This document shows positions 1 to 5,730 of a stretch of DNA of 46,086 nucleotides, one piece after another; position 1 is the stretch's first letter; each line of letters opens with the position of its first letter. The position numbers and the translations under genes were made by a program. Origin of the DNA: Candidatus Nomurabacteria bacterium RIFCSPLOWO2_01_FULL_33_24 (GTDB taxonomy: Bacteria > Patescibacteriota > Minisyncoccia > Phycocordibacterales > MFUP01). Below the pieces are notes generated by a model. It worked only from the letters and a program-made list of their open reading frames with translations, was not told the origin of the DNA and did no database searches. Location of the stretch: assembly GCA_001785735.1 (NCBI GenBank), contig MFUP01000008.1:1-46086 (forward strand), given 5' to 3'.

Positions 1-510
1 GGAGGATTGCTCCAAATCTCTTCTGTGCACGAACATGAGCAAATAGCGGATGGTCAGCCGTAAGGCACATGACTCTCGCATACTGGGGTTTCAATTCGTA
101 CACATTGTTTCTTGTCGAAGAAGCAAATTAACAATGTAAGTTTTAAATATATGACAACAGCTCAAAAACAAAGTTGTATGTTTGTCGGTATCGATGTCCA
201 CAAGGACACTCATACAGCAGTCGGAATCTCTCCCTATGGAGAGAAATTGTTTGAAATCACGGTCGGTAATTACAAAGAAGATTTTGAAGCGCTCGACAAG
301 AAGGTGAAGGAACATTCTGGAGTTTTTTCACCATTCTTTGGGCTGGAAGATGTGCGAGGGTACGGAGAAAGACTGTCAGGATATTTGTACGATAAATATC
401 CTGTATATCATGTGCCGAGCATTTTGGTGGACAGACAGAGACAAAATGCAACACATCCAGAGAAAAATGATTCCCTGGATGCGCTAGGAGTCGCTAAAGT
501 CATGATACAA
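1..510 (+). mobile_element. IS110-family element remnant (non-coding left end plus 5' part of transposase)
   Basis: A 150-nt non-coding leader with hairpins precedes an ORF with IS110 DEDD RuvC-like motifs (FVGIDVHKDTH, GLED, KNDSLDA). The element is cut at ~510 and its left boundary probably lies outside the window. Confidence 0.8.
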
Positions 511-531
511 AATATGTTCCACCCTCACTAG
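151..531 (+). pseudogene. IS110 transposase/recombinase, N-terminal RuvC-like domain only
   Basis: ATG at 151. All four acidic motif positions are present, but the ORF stops after ~126 aa, without the coiled coil or the C-terminal serine Tnp domain. Confidence 0.8.
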
Positions 532-787
532 CCGACTCGTAAGTTATCCAAGTTAGTGCGGCACCAATAATTAACGTGATAACACCTACCGCTATATCAC
601 CATTACCAGAACTACTACTAGAGTTATCGTGGTCTGAAAAATCAAAGCTAGTTTTTCTATTGTGAGTTTCGTTTAGCGCACTATATTGGATACGGTCATC
701 TGGTATTTTTTCTGCTGTTGTGGCACCGCAATAACCACAAAATTTTTCATCATTATTTATTTGTTTTTTGCAGTTTCCGCAGATCAT
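500..787 (-). CDS. zinc-ribbon membrane protein, probably 3'-truncated
   Basis: N-terminal CxxC-x10-CxxC and one TM helix. It ends abruptly at GGTYFVS, where it meets the IS110 remnant. Confidence 0.7.
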   Translation of the reverse strand: MICGNCKKQINNDEKFCGYCGATTAEKIPDDRIQYSALNETHNRKTSFDFSDHDNSSSSSGNGDIAVGVITLIIGAALTWITYESASEGGTYFVS

Positions 788-792
788 ATTAT

Positions 793-1176
793 TTAAAAAA
801 ATTTCTTAAACTCCTTTTTCCATTGTGGCTTCTTTGCGAGCGCAATGTAAAGAAAAGTTATTTTGATTAACCTTACAACAACCACCCAAATAATTAGTGT
901 GAGAAGTGAATACCAAAATGCTTCTCCCGCTGTATCGGTGTACGAGCGAGTGTAATAATCGTAATTTGAGCTATTTTCGCTCCACACAAGAGGAACTACG
1001 AGCAAGAGAGGTAAATACAAAAATACATATGCTACTTTTGCTAACCGGTACCACCATTTTTCATCTGAAAGTGCAGTAGTTTTTTCCTCTTTTGCTCCGA
1101 GCGTGTTTGAATGGCCACACTTTGTGCAGAATTTGTGCCCATCTTTTAATTTATTTCCGCAATTTTCGCAAAACAT
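793..1176 (-). CDS. zinc-ribbon domain membrane protein (2 TM)
   Basis: MFCENCG...KFCTKCG followed by two hydrophobic helices. Confidence 0.85.
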   Translation of the reverse strand: MFCENCGNKLKDGHKFCTKCGHSNTLGAKEEKTTALSDEKWWYRLAKVAYVFLYLPLLLVVPLVWSENSSNYDYYTRSYTDTAGEAFWYSLLTLIIWVVVVRLIKITFLYIALAKKPQWKKEFKKFF

Positions 1177-1178
1177 AA

Positions 1179-2069
1179 TTAGTAGGAATATAAGTAATCA
1201 TAAACTTCTTGTTCTACCTCAACCCCTCCGTCTATTGCTCGTTGAAAATAAAATCTTGCGTTGGCTTCGTCTTCTTTAATCGCATATGACCAACCAAGCC
1301 AATAAGCAATATAAGGGTCGCTACCTTGTGAGGAGAGCAAAGAAATTGTCCGATCATAGTTCTCGTTAAAGAAATGAGCTATCGCTAGATTCTGCGTCGC
1401 AATATTTTTTACATCAGAAGTACTAACATCAAACGCTTTTTGAGCATGAGTCAGTGCTTTTGGATAATTGACATAGTTGGGGGCGATGCTCTCTAAATCG
1501 AGATAGAATAAATTTAAAGCGTTGTTGATTTGAAAGTCGCTAGGACTTAATTCATACGCTTTGTTATAGCTTATTTGAGCGGCATTTGGTTTTCCTTCCA
1601 GCAAAGCAATTTCTCCAGAAACTAGGTAGTGGTCAAATGATCCTGCACTTGCATAAGTAAGAGCTTCCTTAAAGGATTGCAACGCTTGGGCATATTGTCC
1701 CTCACTGAAATAAACATAGCCAAGATTTTTTAGGGTATTTAATTTTGTGTCGGAACCAGTGGCTTCTTGGGAGGCCTGTTGAAATTGTCTAATTGCTTGC
1801 TCACTATCTCCAGAATCAAAATTGGATATTGCCTGATTGTTCTTCTCTATAGCTCCGTCGTCCATAGAGCCCCAGATACCCAACCCAACAATAGCGAGAA
1901 TTACGATTATTCCTATAATCTTTCCGACTGGCGACCCTTTTGGTTTGGGGGGAGAAGATTGAGAAAATATCGGCTCACCTTTTTCGGCAGATGTTGAAAA
2001 AGGTGCGCCACAGCTAGTGCAAAACTTCTGATCTCCCTCCGATTTTTCCCCGCATTTTTTACAAAACAT
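1179..2069 (-). CDS. zinc-ribbon + TM + TPR repeat protein
   Basis: MFCKKCG...KFCTSCG, a single TM, then TPR-like repeats (NLGYVYFSEGQYAQALQSFKEAL). Confidence 0.85.
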   Translation of the reverse strand: MFCKKCGEKSEGDQKFCTSCGAPFSTSAEKGEPIFSQSSPPKPKGSPVGKIIGIIVILAIVGLGIWGSMDDGAIEKNNQAISNFDSGDSEQAIRQFQQASQEATGSDTKLNTLKNLGYVYFSEGQYAQALQSFKEALTYASAGSFDHYLVSGEIALLEGKPNAAQISYNKAYELSPSDFQINNALNLFYLDLESIAPNYVNYPKALTHAQKAFDVSTSDVKNIATQNLAIAHFFNENYDRTISLLSSQGSDPYIAYWLGWSYAIKEDEANARFYFQRAIDGGVEVEQEVYDYLYSY

Positions 2070-2625
2070 AAGTATCTATAAATGTCTTAAAATTAGTAAA
2101 TTCCTTTTTGCTCTTCTTAAGTCTGATCGCTTTTTCTCCATCACCTACGACAATGTATTTATCCTTCTCAAAGGATAAATGATTTTTTAGCTTATCCTTG
2201 GAGATTTCAACAAATATATATTCTCTGTAATTTTCAGATGTGAGGTTATTTTCTAAAAGCCAAGCGTTGCGAGCATTTTGACGCTTTTTCCGATCGCTTG
2301 AATTTCCAATAGCAGCTCCTATCGCCGCACCTATGATATTGAAAAGTACCAAGCCAATAATCAAACCCCATGTACCGCCACTTGTTTTTGGAAATTGGAG
2401 TATATAAAACTTATCTTTAGTTACTAAAATGTCGTGATACGGAAGTGAAGCAATCGCAAAATGTTTTGCTCTTATCCAATCTTGACCATAATATAAAATC
2501 TCTCCAGCAGAATTTTTTGGTTGCGATTTAACAGACGCTCCTTTTTCGTCTTTTGCGCTTGCTCCACAGTTTTGGCAGAAAACTGCGCCTTCTTCAATTT
2601 TTGTACCACAATTTGAACAATGCAT
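2059..2625 (-). CDS. zinc-ribbon membrane protein with glycine-zipper-like helix
   Basis: MHCSNCG...FCQNCG and the segment GLIIGLVLFNIIGAAIGAAIG. Confidence 0.85.
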   Translation of the reverse strand: MHCSNCGTKIEEGAVFCQNCGASAKDEKGASVKSQPKNSAGEILYYGQDWIRAKHFAIASLPYHDILVTKDKFYILQFPKTSGGTWGLIIGLVLFNIIGAAIGAAIGNSSDRKKRQNARNAWLLENNLTSENYREYIFVEISKDKLKNHLSFEKDKYIVVGDGEKAIRLKKSKKEFTNFKTFIDTYVL

Positions 2626-2629
2626 ATTT

Positions 2630-2836
2630 TTAATTGATTAACTCATCAACGGAAACGCCGAACGCCTTGGCGACCTTTCGCAAGGTTTCAAGTGTTGGAT
2701 TCTTGTTTTCCCCTGATTCCATTTTAATAATCGTATTGTTGGCGACATCGGCCAATCTCGCCAATTTCTCTTGCGAAAGACCTTTTTGCTTTCGCAACTT
2801 TTCCACATTTTTTGCTAAATTTTCGTTCTTTGACAT
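2630..2836 (-). CDS. XRE-family HTH transcriptional regulator (68 aa)
   Basis: LRKQKGLSQEKLARLADV...ESGENKNPTLETLRKVAKAFGVSVDEL. The ATG at 2836 is preferred over the longer track start. Confidence 0.9.
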   Translation of the reverse strand: MSKNENLAKNVEKLRKQKGLSQEKLARLADVANNTIIKMESGENKNPTLETLRKVAKAFGVSVDELIN

Positions 2837-2851
2837 ATTATTAGTATAGTA

Positions 2852-2923
2852 GTAACATTGAAATGGAAGTATATAAATCTTTTCAACTATTTCAATGTTA
2901 CATCTAAAAGGACAAAAAGTCAA
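2852..2923 (-). promoter_or_regulatory. sigma70-type promoter of the XRE operon with overlapping inverted-repeat operator
   Basis: TTGACT(2923-2918)-17-TAACAT(2900-2895). Perfect 13-bp IR GTAACATTGAAAT 2852-2864 / ATTTCAATGTTAC 2889-2901. Confidence 0.6.
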
Positions 2924-2929
2924 AATTGT

Positions 2930-3285
2930 ATGCCCGCCCGCCGAAAAAAATCGGGCGAAGCCCGAAAAGCAAAAGGGCAAAAAGGAAGGGGGTTGGGGGG
3001 AAGGAATTTTTGCCCTTTTACGAATTAGAATAGAGCGTTTCCGCTTTTCTCTGATTAAGAGAAAACCAAAACAGAAAATTTTTCATTTCCTATTAAAAGA
3101 AAAAAATGGGGGGCAGAAAAAAATAAAAAATGTAATGAAAAAATTTCTGTTTTGGTTTGCCGTAGCGGAGCGGAGGCAAGCGGAAACGCACCTCATTATT
3201 CTGGATTCTGTTCAAAAAAGGTTAGAATTTCAACCAAAAGGCACCGCAGGTGCGTAAAACTTCCGAAACTTCTGAAATTCTAAAT
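2930..3285. other. highly structured non-coding element (nested inverted repeats), candidate ncRNA or cis DNA site
   Basis: Stems at 2951-2965, 2971-2983/3007-3019, 3035-3046/3178-3189, 3063-3087/3134-3158, 3222-3232/3273-3283 and 3241-3253. Confidence 0.6.
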
Positions 3286-3288
3286 TTG

Positions 3289-3373
3289 CGGAGGGTATGG
3301 GATTTGAACCCATGAGGGGTTGCCCCCTACTCGCTTTCCAAGCGAGCGCACTAGACCACTATGCGAACCCTCC
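3289..3373 (-). tRNA. tRNA-Ser(GGA), CCA not encoded
   Basis: GGAGGGT/ACCCTCC acceptor stem, anticodon arm CTCGC-TTGGAAA-GCGAG, long variable arm and GGTTCAAATCC T-arm. Confidence 0.97.
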
Positions 3374-3414
3374 AATAGATTAAAAATAACCTATTTTCTC
3401 CATATTTCCAAATG

Positions 3415-3442
3415 AAAAAGCTCCCGAACGGAAGCTTTTTTG
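3415..3442. terminator. intrinsic terminator hairpin
   Basis: AAAAGCTCCC-GAAC-GGAAGCTTTT with A/T tails, downstream of the small ORF at 3456-3602. Confidence 0.6.
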
Positions 3443-3455
3443 TTTTTTTATCTTC

Positions 3456-3602
3456 TTATCTTACATTTTTGAATCCCAATAAAGAATAATTTTTATTTCC
3501 TTGCCCCTTTGTGCTTTTTCCATGGCAAGTGTGTCTGGAACAAGATGAAGCTAATATTGAAATAAAAATTATGATTAAGAAAAAAACATTTTTTATCTTC
3601 AT
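3456..3602 (-). CDS. small (48 aa) predicted lipoprotein, absent from ORF track
   Basis: MKIKNVFFLIIIFISILASSCSRHTCHGK...NVR. It has its own promoter TTGACT(3675-3670)-17-TGnTATCAT and its own terminator. Confidence 0.65.
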   Translation of the reverse strand: MKIKNVFFLIIIFISILASSCSRHTCHGKSTKGQGNKNYSLLGFKNVR

Positions 3603-3763
3603 GTATAATAATTTTTATTTTATTTTAATTAAAAAACCTCTCTTGTATGATACCACAGTACATATTAAAAGTCAAGAGTTAGAAAATAGTGAAAATAAAA
3701 GGGAAAATTGGTATAATAAAAACTATTATCTTTTAATTTATTGAATCCTCCAGAAAAACAAAA

Positions 3764-4852
3764 ATGCGTTTTATCCCAACTAATATCATCTTGTATTTTT
3801 TTCTAGTAATTCTCGGAATGAGCGGAGTTGTTTTTGCCGTTATTTGGCCTCAAGCAATAGGTTTCTATATCTTTATTGCCTTTGCTGCCGTTGGAGGGCT
3901 TGGGGTTGCCGTTAATATTTATTACACCAAAAGAAGAAACAAACAACTTATTTGTCCTATTGGTTCTGATTGTAATGCTGTTATTAATAGTCAATACGCT
4001 AAGTTTCTAGGAATACCTCTAGAATATTGCGGAATGTTTTATTATGCGATTATTCTTATTTCTTATCTCTTTCTAATTTTTATTCCCCACATATTTTCTA
4101 ATAATTTATCGTCCGCTTTAATAATACTGACGGCTGGGGCTTTTCTTTTTTCTCTCTACCTCTTGTTTGTCCAAGCTTTTATTTTAAAGAAATGGTGTAT
4201 TTGGTGTCTTCTTTCTGCCATGCTTTCTATTGGAATTTTTATAGTTTCTTTGGCTAAGGTAGATTTTGCTGTGACTTTTTTTATGAAAGTGGAAACCATT
4301 ATTGAAATAATTCATACTCTTGGTTTTGTTATTGGAATGGGGGGGGCAACCATAACCCTCTTTCTTTTCTTTAAGTTTTTGCGTGATTTTAAGATTGATG
4401 AAACTGAATTAAAAATACTCCAAGGAATTTCAGAATTTGTCTGGCTCGGGTTGGTTCTTGTTTTAGTAAGCCAATTTATTTCTTATGTTGTTTATCCAAA
4501 TCTTTTAGCTTCGTCTGGTTTATTTTTAATTGAAACGCTAGCTCTTTTGGTGGTCGCTGTTACGGGAGCTATTTTACTAATAATTTTTGCTCCCTTGCTT
4601 TCCATCATTCCCTTTAGTAGTAGAGAGGATAAAAATAATAATCTTTCACCGCTTGAAACATTAAAAAAACCATTATTTGTTCTAGGAGCTATTACTGTCT
4701 CTTCTTGGTATTTTGCCTTTATTATGAATTATTTATCAGAATATAGTTTTTCAAATTTATTTCTAGTGTATCTAGTAGTTTTGATGATAGCCAGTTTTTT
4801 GTCTTTGCTCATAGAAAAAAATATTAACAAGAAGAATTTTGATATTTCCTAA
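3764..4852 (+). CDS. VKOR-family disulfide-bond protein fused to extra membrane domain
   Basis: CPIGSDC...SQYAKFLGIP...WCIWC, followed by about five additional TM helices. Confidence 0.85.
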   Translation: MRFIPTNIILYFFLVILGMSGVVFAVIWPQAIGFYIFIAFAAVGGLGVAVNIYYTKRRNKQLICPIGSDCNAVINSQYAKFLGIPLEYCGMFYYAIILISYLFLIFIPHIFSNNLSSALIILTAGAFLFSLYLLFVQAFILKKWCIWCLLSAMLSIGIFIVSLAKVDFAVTFFMKVETIIEIIHTLGFVIGMGGATITLFLFFKFLRDFKIDETELKILQGISEFVWLGLVLVLVSQFISYVVYPNLLASSGLFLIETLALLVVAVTGAILLIIFAPLLSIIPFSSREDKNNNLSPLETLKKPLFVLGAITVSSWYFAFIMNYLSEYSFSNLFLVYLVVLMIASFLSLLIEKNINKKNFDIS

Positions 4853-4952: not shown

Positions 4953-5465
4953 ATGAAAATTAAATATTTTTTAATTTTATTTTTACTAACTTCTGCTTGT
5001 ACTAAAAAAAGAAATGTTATAGATTGTATCCCAGGATGGGAAAAATGTTCTTATAAAAGTCAGTTTGAAGCTAGTAAAAAATTTAAATTTTACCACCTTA
5101 ACAAAGATCAAAAAGAAATTATTCAAGGATTAGGCATTCTCCCCTGCAGAACTAGTTATAAAATTTTTGTTTTCGAAGAAACAAAAAATAATTGGAGTGA
5201 AATAAAATTACCTCCAGAAATATTAGAATGCAAAATTATAATTAACAATATTAGTATTTTTGGATTCAAAATTATTTTTTCTTGTCTGGGTAAAAATTAT
5301 TATTATCACTATTGTTATAAGACAGGGAAATGGCAAAAAGAGAAAGAAGTTATAAAAAAACAAAAGATTAAAAAGGAAAGAAATATTCCGCAAAATTACC
5401 AGTATTATATAAAAAATAAACCCCGATTAACGGGGTTTTATTTATATAGTTTAGTAATTATCTAA
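4953..5465 (+). CDS. hypothetical Cys-containing lipoprotein
   Basis: Signal MKIKYFLILFLLTSAC; promoter TTGAGA-17-TAAAAT upstream. Confidence 0.6.
   Translation: MKIKYFLILFLLTSACTKKRNVIDCIPGWEKCSYKSQFEASKKFKFYHLNKDQKEIIQGLGILPCRTSYKIFVFEETKNNWSEIKLPPEILECKIIINNISIFGFKIIFSCLGKNYYYHYCYKTGKWQKEKEVIKKQKIKKERNIPQNYQYYIKNKPRLTGFYLYSLVII
5413..5444. terminator. bidirectional terminator between convergent genes
   Basis: AAACCCCG-ATTAA-CGGGGTTT with A/T tails. Confidence 0.65.
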
Positions 5466-5730
5466 TTTTACCATTATTTTTATAAGCTATTTTACGGACA
5501 AAGTTGTTCCCATCTCCATATTTTTCTGTAAATTTTTCTAACTCTTCTTGATTAATCCCCAGTTCTTCTAAAGGAATATTTTCTTTTTTGATAAAATCCT
5601 TGAGACTTGTTAATATTTGTAAATTGTTTCTGCTTCCGTTTTTCCTCAATTTGCCAATATTTCTTTTAGCTGTTCCCATTCTTTGATTCAATGCTTTTCT
5701 TTGTTTTAATTTCTTTTTTTCTTGACCCAT
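5458..5730 (-). CDS. hypothetical basic protein
   Basis: 90-aa ORF with an upstream TTGACT...TATGAT promoter-like sequence. Confidence 0.6.
   Translation of the reverse strand: MGQEKKKLKQRKALNQRMGTAKRNIGKLRKNGSRNNLQILTSLKDFIKKENIPLEELGINQEELEKFTEKYGDGNNFVRKIAYKNNGKIR

Follow-up and report, generated by a model that had tools for sequence, protein, structure and literature searches.

The subject of this report is a hairpin-rich interval of about 320 nt beside a serine tRNA gene of Candidatus Nomurabacteria bacterium RIFCSPLOWO2_01_FULL_33_24, and the family of integrative cassettes to which it appears to belong. The 46,086-nt stretch analysed (contig C8, GenBank MFUP01000008.1; hereafter the window) is part of a genome of 398 kb in 16 contigs that is 67% complete. 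Large serine integrases of the phage type are represented by those of phiC31, Bxb1 and A118. Modular hairpin repeats that are transcribed with neighbouring genes, and whose modules may be present or absent, are represented by the pneumococcal BOX and the Neisseria Correia elements, which occur in high copy and scattered through the genome. What is said of further published systems refers to the sections of the respective papers drawn on here: large serine recombinases need just short sites of about 40-50 bp (PMC12286644); the ssrA-specific islands of Dehalococcoides, with the serine integrase DsiB, accumulate in tandem, some of them without integration genes, and carry strain-specific cargo (McMurdie et al. 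2011, PMC3146451); restriction-modification (RM) units with long flanking inverted repeats have repeats of 26-65 bp and 8-bp target duplications (Furuta, Abe and Kobayashi 2010, PMC2853133); and a minority of the Prochlorococcus tycheposons (937 minus 910 elements) carries a large serine recombinase (preprint 10.1101/2020.12.28.424599).

We consider it likely that the interval belongs to a decayed integrative element of cassette type, placed at the tRNA-Ser(gga) 3' end, and forms its recombinase-proximal terminal repeat (hereafter the arm); it is unlikely to be an origin or an RNA gene standing by itself. In the orientation of the window, intact relatives comprise an inverted first arm, a variable cargo, a second arm, a large serine recombinase gene and a tRNA gene; the first gene of the cargo is an XRE-family regulator reading away from the second arm, the second arm runs from inner boundary through P0, hairpin A and module B to module C, and the 3' end of the recombinase gene overlaps the 3' end of the tRNA gene in antisense. 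The family is apparently a widespread, undescribed variant of the serine-recombinase integrative elements; a literature search found no description of it in the Candidate Phyla Radiation (CPR), and supplements of papers, e.g. of the tycheposon preprint, may hold element lists.

Like the Dehalococcoides islands, the cassettes have a large (CcrB-like) serine recombinase gene at the island edge beside a tRNA-like target. Unlike those islands, they use ordinary tRNA genes (Ser, Asn, Ala, Gln, Cys), with an arm and XRE gene beside a transfer-messenger RNA (tmRNA) gene in one locus (L046), they have one recombinase gene in place of a six-gene integration module, and their hosts are Patescibacteria; hairpin-rich inverted arms and an XRE gene bracketing the cargo are a cassette feature that the sections of PMC3146451 used here do not describe for the islands. 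With the phage-type integrases they have in common the Resolvase + Recombinase + Zn_ribbon_recom architecture and site-specific integration, whereas no phage genes were seen, 3-9 kb of cargo lie between structured repeats, and the arm is an extra feature relative to sites of about 40-50 bp, the size given in the part of PMC12286644 drawn on. The RM units of PMC2853133, in the sections used, likewise hold defence genes between inverted repeats without a transposase (compare the EcoO109I-type enzyme and methylase of L017), but the cassette repeats are 60-400 nt long, internally folded and placed beside a serine recombinase gene and a tRNA gene, and no target duplication was seen at L047 or L056. 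The tycheposons, as far as the preprint sections used here describe them, are also small cargo shuttles that integrate at tRNA genes of streamlined genomes and build variable islands; unlike the cassettes they mostly use tyrosine recombinases and often carry replication modules, and hairpin-rich inverted arms with an XRE-first cargo operon are not mentioned for them in those sections.

The arm and its tRNA neighbour comprise the following features of the window.

2931-3249, plus strand: arm, the conserved terminal repeat of the cassette, with inner end 2931 and outer end 3249 (nhmmer, 7-sequence profile)
2951-2965, minus strand: P0, hairpin TCGGGC-TTC-GCCCGA with a T7 run after it; resembles an intrinsic terminator facing inward, at the inner edge of the arm; also present in L044 and L045
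2971-2983/3007-3019, plus strand: hairpin A, perfect 13-bp stem with the 23-nt G-rich loop GGAAGGGGGTTGGGGGGAAGGAA (inverted-repeat search)
3035-3189, plus strand: module B, a three-way junction of P1, P2, P3 and P4 (inverted repeats and RNA folding)
3035-3046/3178-3189: P1 of module B, perfect 12 bp; extended outer stem 3035-3051/3173-3189 (17 nt, 88%)
about 3045-3065: P2, small hairpin of module B
3063-3094/3127-3158: P3, long hairpin of module B (32 nt, 88%)
about 3159-3177: P4, small hairpin of module B
3195-3249, plus strand: module C, outer end of the arm, ending ...CCAAAAGGCACCGC (alignment of nine full-length copies)
3222-3232/3273-3283: perfect 11-bp stem enclosing GCACC-GCA-GGTGC at 3241-3253
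3288-3373, minus strand: tRNA-Ser(gga) (ARAGORN; Rfam tRNA, 57.6 bits), the presumed integration target, whose 3' end abuts the element

The original prediction had read the block at 2930-3285 as either a large structured RNA or an origin, transfer or packaging signal of the island. All stems that it named are present in the inverted-repeat search, and its observation that the block starts about 5 nt past the tRNA 3' end agrees with the annotation: the block sits between tRNA-Ser(gga) and the XRE gene (2633-2836, minus strand), with a gap of 3-5 nt to the tRNA 3' end. On the plus strand, P0 is preceded by the boundary GCCCGCCCGCCGAAAAAAA, and module C reads on the minus strand as a hairpin followed by T6 (scan of L027 and L054). 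The 11-bp stem at 3222-3232/3273-3283 pairs module C with a recombinase tail described below, and GCACC-GCA-GGTGC belongs to this tail.

Folded as RNA (363 nt; minimum free energy, 100 shuffles per strand), the block reaches -114 kcal/mol on the minus strand vs -78.3 +/- 5.6 for the shuffles (z -6.36) and -112.9 kcal/mol on the plus strand vs -88.5 +/- 5.0 (z -4.85), with 0/100 shuffles as good in either case. The criterion for a rho-independent terminator (GC-rich hairpin and T run) applies to P0 only (TCGGGCTTCGCCCGA + TTTTTTT, minus strand); with its 15 nt out of about 320, P0 does not make a terminator of the whole arm, and there is indeed more structure than a terminator needs, in a real and conserved element. 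A search of window positions 2400-3800 against Rfam with E-value thresholds gave the tRNA as the only match reaching its gathering score, the others being sub-threshold hairpins of plant-miRNA type that stay far short of their gathering scores; with gathering thresholds, no family overlapped an arm in seven related loci, the sole match being a SAM riboswitch elsewhere in L016.

Matches to the block or to parts of it were found in 11 of the 61 relatives searched (E <= 1e-3), in 36/401 genomes of an order-level sample (E <= 1e-5) and in 36/401 of a phylum-level sample (E <= 1e-6), the window's own genome being counted in all three. The best match, G309:C4 from a genome of another family, is 95% identical across 262 nt, and conservation between it and the window is limited to the arm at the DNA level, the flanking genes being not conserved; a genome outside the window's class (G524) has 87% identity across 300 nt. 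The window's own genome, at 67% completeness, gave no further copy, only the self-palindrome and A-rich chance matches. The number of matching places per genome is 0-6 (six in G309, partly palindromic self-matches), always tied to a cassette, unlike the scattered BOX and Correia repeats. No arm match was found in 72,556 plasmid records, 50,697 phage records or viral contigs.

The core of hairpin A (41 nt, 2975-3015) is 100% identical at six sites distributed over five other genomes of the order, and it occurs exactly in at least 120 stretches of a collection with one genome per species. Among the 80 matches listed, 53 have a Patescibacteria/CPR-lineage label (Saccharibacteria, Uhrbacteria, Berkelbacteria, Peregrinibacteria, Nomurabacteria and others), eight are labelled just 'bacterium', and 19 have other labels, mostly 'uncultured Gammaproteobacteria', the labels being taken as given. 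In a groundwater DNA run the summed contig depth is 690-1880 at 2601-3400 vs 3-10 in unique flanks, and many contigs break exactly at 2975, 3015 and 3373, which argues that this stretch is common to many organisms of the groundwater community in differing contexts. Contig joints in the same DNA run (e.g. 831 to 2684) were left unused, their short sides being below 30 nt and maybe from other organisms.

Nine aligned full-length copies give the module order inner boundary (G)CCCGCCGAAAAAA(A), P0, hairpin A, module B and module C; module C ends ...AAAAGG(C/T)ACCGC(CA), and similarity among the homologues ceases right there. The homologue search and the covariation check proposed in the original prediction thus both had a positive outcome, for the copies maintain their pairing through compensatory changes. 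RNAalifold on the nine copies gave 48 consensus pairs, 23 of them with two-sided changes. For P3 in 21 copies, 17/22 pairs have two-sided changes and 90.2% of the cells pair, vs 75.7 +/- 1.2% with partners shuffled (0/500 as high); sliding the partner by 1-3 columns lowers pairing to 50-63% and the pairs with two-sided changes to 6-11. The base of the hairpin A stem covaries (AAAAGGGC to GGCGGGC), and the P2 stem is swapped outright between copies with its place kept (TCTC/GAGA, CCCGC/GCGGG, CCTCT/AGAGG, TTTGGC/GCCAAA). Compensatory changes could in principle come from self-correction of palindromes; selection on pairing is argued by the wholesale replacement of short stems.

The 120-aa open reading frame (ORF) at 2895-3257 exists, and the suspicion that it is unlike a protein was borne out: the distances between conserved anchors differ by non-multiples of three in nine homologues, i.e. 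the frame is not conserved, and the ORF was therefore rejected as a protein-coding gene. Long open frames are called across the arm because its plus strand contains just 18-23% T. The original prediction had named in advance codon-level selection, absence of homologues and an Rfam match as outcomes that would speak against it, and none of these was encountered.

Two features of hairpin A were noted in passing. It has the same geometry as the putative XRE operator at 2852-2901 (perfect 13-bp arms, spacers of 23 and 24 bp, sequences different), and its loop is a near-perfect purine mirror repeat (GGAAGGGGG-TT-GGGGGGAAGG). Purine mirror repeats are prone to triplex or G-quadruplex formation.

The cassette reading draws on the relatives, as the window holds a single arm and its contig starts inside the island. 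Inverted pairs of arms were found in L056 (2931-3212, minus strand, and 5279-5559, plus strand; 317 nt, 99.7% identity), L047 (170 nt, 97%), L016 (at both contig ends; 113 nt, 100%), L017 (255 nt, 87%) and L055 (99 nt, 97%), with additional pairs in G570, G422 and G408. The inner (A) ends of a pair face each other, and among the matches listed, loci with two exact 41-mers have them on opposite strands in 10/10 cases. The cargo between the arms differs by genome (Pfam scan of 20 neighbour proteins from seven loci, three of them recombinases): a GmrSD/Mrr-type restriction enzyme in L047, an EcoO109I-type enzyme with a methylase and a TPR-PIN protein in L017, a TaqI-type enzyme in L011, two methylases with an AAA_15 ATPase in L049, and a weak nucleotidyltransferase-like match (27 bits vs a cut-off of 21) in L056. 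The orientation of the cargo relative to the recombinase varies among loci. Full arms have hairpin A on the same strand as module C (27/27), whereas short arms, which are without module B, have it on the opposite strand in 42/47 cases; the orientation was checked in the sequence of L047.

Among 16 arms whose inner end is intact and whose flank spans at least 700 nt, seven have an XRE gene just inside that reads away from the arm, which fits one XRE gene per two arms (about half expected). A total of 40 distinct XRE-arm junctions with the XRE gene reading away were collected, the XRE proteins being 37-79% identical to that of the window. The XRE gene is at the recombinase-proximal arm in three of four informative loci of a first set (the window, L047 and L057; not L056) and in 10/12 loci of a second set, which may overlap the first. 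The recombinase adjoins the outer side of the arm and has 500-540 aa with the domains Resolvase, Recombinase and Zn_ribbon_recom (Pfam; L047, L050, L056). Its 3' end overlaps an opposite-strand tRNA gene, namely tRNA-Ser(tga) in L047, tRNA-Ser(gct) in L050 and L056, and tRNA-Cys in L060. In the second set, 10/18 recombinase-bearing loci have a tRNA gene (Ser, Asn, Ala, Gln) at or within 42 nt of the match end, with an intact recombinase gene overlapping the tRNA gene in seven loci; of the remaining recombinase loci, two abut the outer end of another arm, and the others are cut by the locus end or have no tRNA gene. The order of the window is found with an intact recombinase gene in L092, L098 and L109, i.e. 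XRE (minus), arm (plus), recombinase (plus), tRNA (minus), and a remnant of a recombinase tail lies at tRNA-Ser(gga) in G108, too. The neighbours that the original prediction proposed to tabulate (tRNA, XRE, recombinase) are thus those that define the element.

A transposon or miniature inverted-repeat transposable element was considered in view of the inverted repeats of the relatives, and was rejected: no target-site duplication was seen at L047 or L056, and no transposase lies between the arms. On the far side of L056, no direct repeat of the tRNA end of at least 11 nt was found. A syntenic relative without the island (an empty site) was not found among the relatives, which belong to other families and do not share the flanks.

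Several further observations concern the surroundings of the arms in relatives. A SAM riboswitch (66.6 bits, gathering score 44.4) lies at 892-1003 (minus strand) of L016, upstream of small ORFs without assigned role; it is a metabolite-sensing leader within the cargo of a 3.5-kb cassette bounded by two arms. Just beyond the outer end of the arm, L009 (1800-1930) and L022 (487-640) have a conserved unit of about 130-150 nt that is closed by a 15-bp stem of tRNA-Ser 3'-end-like sequence and its complement (GGAGACGGAGGGATT...AATCCCTCCGTCTCC) and gave no call by ARAGORN or Rfam; in L022 it includes a 19-nt direct repeat of the 3' end of the neighbouring tRNA-Ser(gct), and the unit may be the relic of an attachment site. 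In most relatives (L098, L016, L030, L049, L009 and others), a further conserved block stands between the inner arm end and the XRE promoter region, some 60-120 nt inward of the former, and consists of AAAGGGAG (Shine-Dalgarno-like) and a hairpin with the loop GCGCACGGG(T/A)GG(T/G)GGGGCAAG; the window is without this block, and its XRE-arm spacer is 95 nt vs 140-210 nt elsewhere. In L046 (9589-10665), an XRE gene and the inner part of an arm adjoin the tmRNA gene, and no recombinase match was found in the locus, so that a tmRNA target of the kind used by the Dehalococcoides islands is no more than hinted at. Outer arm ends border directly on the 3' end of a further recombinase gene, or meet a further arm tail to tail, in L110 (20-1893), L113 (2-1821) and L073 (6114-6550). 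These contacts point to tandem stacking of elements and to possible use of the outer arm end (…ACCGCCA, like a tRNA acceptor end with CCA) as a target itself.

The remaining features of the window copy are as follows.

503-2625, minus strand: cargo operon of four tightly packed zinc-ribbon genes (ORFs; Pfam Zn_Ribbon_1 / DZR / TPR)
503-787, 796-1176, 1182-2069 (TPR repeats) and 2062-2625, minus strand: zinc-ribbon coding segments
2633-2836, minus strand: XRE-family helix-turn-helix regulator, 68 aa (Pfam HTH_3, E 6.3e-18)
2830-2858, plus strand: outward promoter-like site TTGACA-17-TAACAT (10 of 12, a consensus match only), with its -35 overlapping the XRE start codon
2852-2864/2889-2901: perfect 13-bp inverted repeat GTAACATTGAAAT / ATTTCAATGTTAC with a 24-bp spacer, candidate XRE operator
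2895 to 2868, minus strand: XRE promoter TTGAAA-16-TATACT
3241-3318, plus strand: remnant of a large-serine-recombinase gene, its last 26 codons (APQVRKTSETSEILNLRRVWDLNP and stop; tblastn)

The XRE gene is the first of the cargo operon and reads away from the arm at a distance of 95 nt. The GC content is 0.37-0.40 in 1-3000 vs about 0.30 elsewhere on the contig, in keeping with the word 'island' of the original prediction, and the far end of the island, with any second arm, is outside the sequence. In tblastn, the remnant at 3241-3318 agrees with the L050 recombinase (530 aa; residues 504-529) in 20/26 residues. It starts at the GCACCGC that is common to the outer end of the arm (GGCACCGC, to 3249) and the tail (GCACCGCAGGTGC...), and runs antisense into tRNA-Ser, its first 15 codons lying outside the tRNA gene and its end being antisense to the tRNA T-arm. 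The element end is therefore placed at the tRNA 3' end with a recombinase reading across the junction, as seen in the tail remnant; of the recombinase gene itself, sought in or at the element, the window has only these 26 terminal codons, and no Resolvase domain (PF00239) was found in the window's own, 67%-complete genome. In L050 and L029, the recombinase gene, or about 100 nt of its upstream region, intervenes between arm end and tail, from which we infer that the recombinase gene was deleted between the short direct repeats GCACCGC. Judged by its sequence, the window copy appears to be a decayed, recombinase-less member of the cassette family.

At the contig start (112-528, plus strand) the window has an N-terminal fragment of an IS110-family transposase (139 aa; DEDD_Tnp_IS110, E 2e-16), which is a truncated insertion sequence unrelated to the element. 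In the groundwater DNA run the depth is 190-570 at 1-600 vs 3-10 nearby; the IS110-type sequence is accordingly multi-copy and probably broke the assembly. Upstream of tRNA-Ser, a terminator-type hairpin with a T-run lies at 3411-3450 (minus strand), and accounts for a sub-threshold Rfam alignment to 'Phe_leader' (28.3 bits, gathering score 55).

As the boundary of such a cassette, the arm would act in cis and may have three roles. It would (a) provide a constant flank for the exchange or flipping of cargo through homologous recombination, which fits the arms being constant and near-identical within one element while cargo and orientation vary. Its hairpins and inward terminator-like sites would (b) shield the cargo, as well as the recombinase gene, from tRNA or outside transcription; such sites were found in the inward sense in 8/19 arms and in the outward sense in 3/19, and transcripts running on from the window's tRNA-Ser would traverse the arm and terminate at P0, just short of the XRE promoter. 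The XRE-adjacent arm would (c) probably be transcribed from the outward promoter, giving a long structured leader toward the recombinase gene. An outward promoter-like site (at least 10 of 12) faces the arm at 20/40 XRE-arm junctions vs about 5% of shuffles. In the window, the 13-bp inverted repeat extends over both the outward -10 and the XRE -35, and this arrangement, an outward promoter-like site flanked by an inverted repeat that covers the XRE promoter -35, suggests that XRE may gate transcription into the arm and, in intact elements, toward the recombinase.

RNA-library contigs of three studies cover 2986-3247 at a depth of 5-24 (X15, 21; X17, 24.4; X20, 5-9.2) vs 0-3.8 for the XRE gene; these contigs carry neither strand nor RNA ends, DNA carry-over is possible, and rare junctions are invisible in them. 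The contig ends at 2986 and 3247 were not taken as RNA ends and are read instead as breaks of the assembly graph where the sequence varies or branches. A plus-sense sigma-70-like promoter in module C was rejected, the TAGAAT of the window being not conserved in the alignment; a minus-strand promoter-like TTGAAA-17-CAGAAT at 3233-3205 is conserved just in part (by eye).

Several points weigh against the cassette-arm interpretation. The window holds a single arm, with no second copy in a genome that is 67% complete, and among the loci compared no excision, inversion or empty site was demonstrated. Canonical terminators are present in a minority of the arms, and the L050 recombinase gene seems to have its own promoter-like site beside the ATG (by eye), which weakens the leader idea. 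An arm of 320 nt is unexplained by recombination chemistry, as short sites of about 40-50 bp suffice according to the part of PMC12286644 used. Finally, the compensatory changes and the near-invariant loops point to a selected fold, which a mere homology handle does not need.

This last point is taken furthest in the proposal that the arm represents a new class of mobile-element RNA or a single-stranded-nucleic-acid signal, with a fold of about 320 nt and near-invariant G-rich loops that would be transcribed from an XRE-gated promoter and govern when the cassettes of a pan-CPR family move or express their cargo. We regard this as doubtful; if true, selection on the fold would explain the letter-perfect 41-nt hairpin in lineages with labels such as Saccharibacteria, Uhrbacteria, Peregrinibacteria and Berkelbacteria.

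An independent structured non-coding RNA, made in plus sense from the XRE-controlled outward promoter and acting on the element via its G-rich loops, e.g. by controlling recombinase expression or cargo, is unlikely. It would account for the strong compensatory changes (17/22 P3 pairs, 0/500 shuffles as good) and the conserved loop sequences, and is consistent with the promoter-like site at 20/40 junctions and with RNA-library contigs of three studies spanning 2986-3247, which, as said, give no strand or ends and may include DNA. The re-orientation of hairpin A in 42/47 short arms speaks against one RNA, because the G-rich and the C-rich loop are not equivalent; furthermore, short arms are without module B, every element has a second, inverted copy without an adjoining XRE gene, and a plus-sense terminator was not found in 16/19 arms. 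The strand of action is hardly marked: G-U vs A-C in consensus pairs is 15 vs 8 in nine copies, 22 vs 15 in 21 copies and, for the P3 consensus pairs of 29 unique copies on the plus strand, 22 vs 11, a weak excess that comes from related sequences; the plus-strand fold is the more stable in 18/21 copies, which may be composition, since plus-strand shuffles also fold better. The stand-alone RNA gene of the original prediction is thus unsupported, with inverted pairs that bracket cargo and modules that are deleted or re-oriented between copies.

The opposite proposal, a repeat acting purely at the DNA level, is quite improbable. The arms would be homology handles or recombination substrates, and the covariation would arise, without selection on a fold, by self-correction of palindromes, in which template switching or gene conversion makes the two halves of an inverted repeat match again. 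Such a repeat agrees with the 87-100% identity between the two arms of one element, with arms that are far more conserved than the cargo, with the varying orientation of cargo relative to recombinase, with hairpin A occurring in both orientations and with the lack of a clear strand bias. Self-correction accounts poorly, however, for stems as short as 5-6 bp (P2, P0) that are replaced wholesale with position and loop kept, for a three-way junction that persists across sequence types whose stems have little sequence in common, and for loops conserved independently of the stems.

A single-stranded-DNA signal used on single-strand entry of the cassette, be it a priming site of single-strand-origin type or an origin of transfer, is very improbable. 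The dense stable hairpins of equal stability on both strands, the conserved loops and the inverted copies, which would give either strand one active copy, could be cited for it. Against it, the idea rests on an analogy with plasmid biology, a nick-site motif was not identified, the Pfam scan gave no Rep, relaxase or primase domain among the 20 neighbour proteins of seven loci, and the plasmid, phage and viral records above hold no match. The origin, transfer or packaging signal of the original prediction was not supported; its signal of the island comes closest, as a conserved end repeat of the cassette.

For the biology of these organisms, the preferred interpretation, i.e. the arm of a tRNA-targeting cassette, has several consequences. 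The exact 41-nt core in at least 120 stretches and the arms 87-95% identical between families or classes speak for recent gene exchange between very deep lineages. Compact serine recombinases whose tRNA targets are readable can be drawn from these elements, together with a natural cassette design of constant arms, a regulator placed first and swappable cargo, whose insulating or regulatory logic is open to testing. For annotation, once the arm is recognised, spurious 'hypothetical proteins' called across it, among them the 120-aa ORF at 2895-3257, can be dropped. In the window only a relic of the element is left; the family appears to serve very widely as a vehicle by which defence and other accessory genes are exchanged among the CPR/Patescibacteria, organisms with tiny genomes and few recognised mobile elements.

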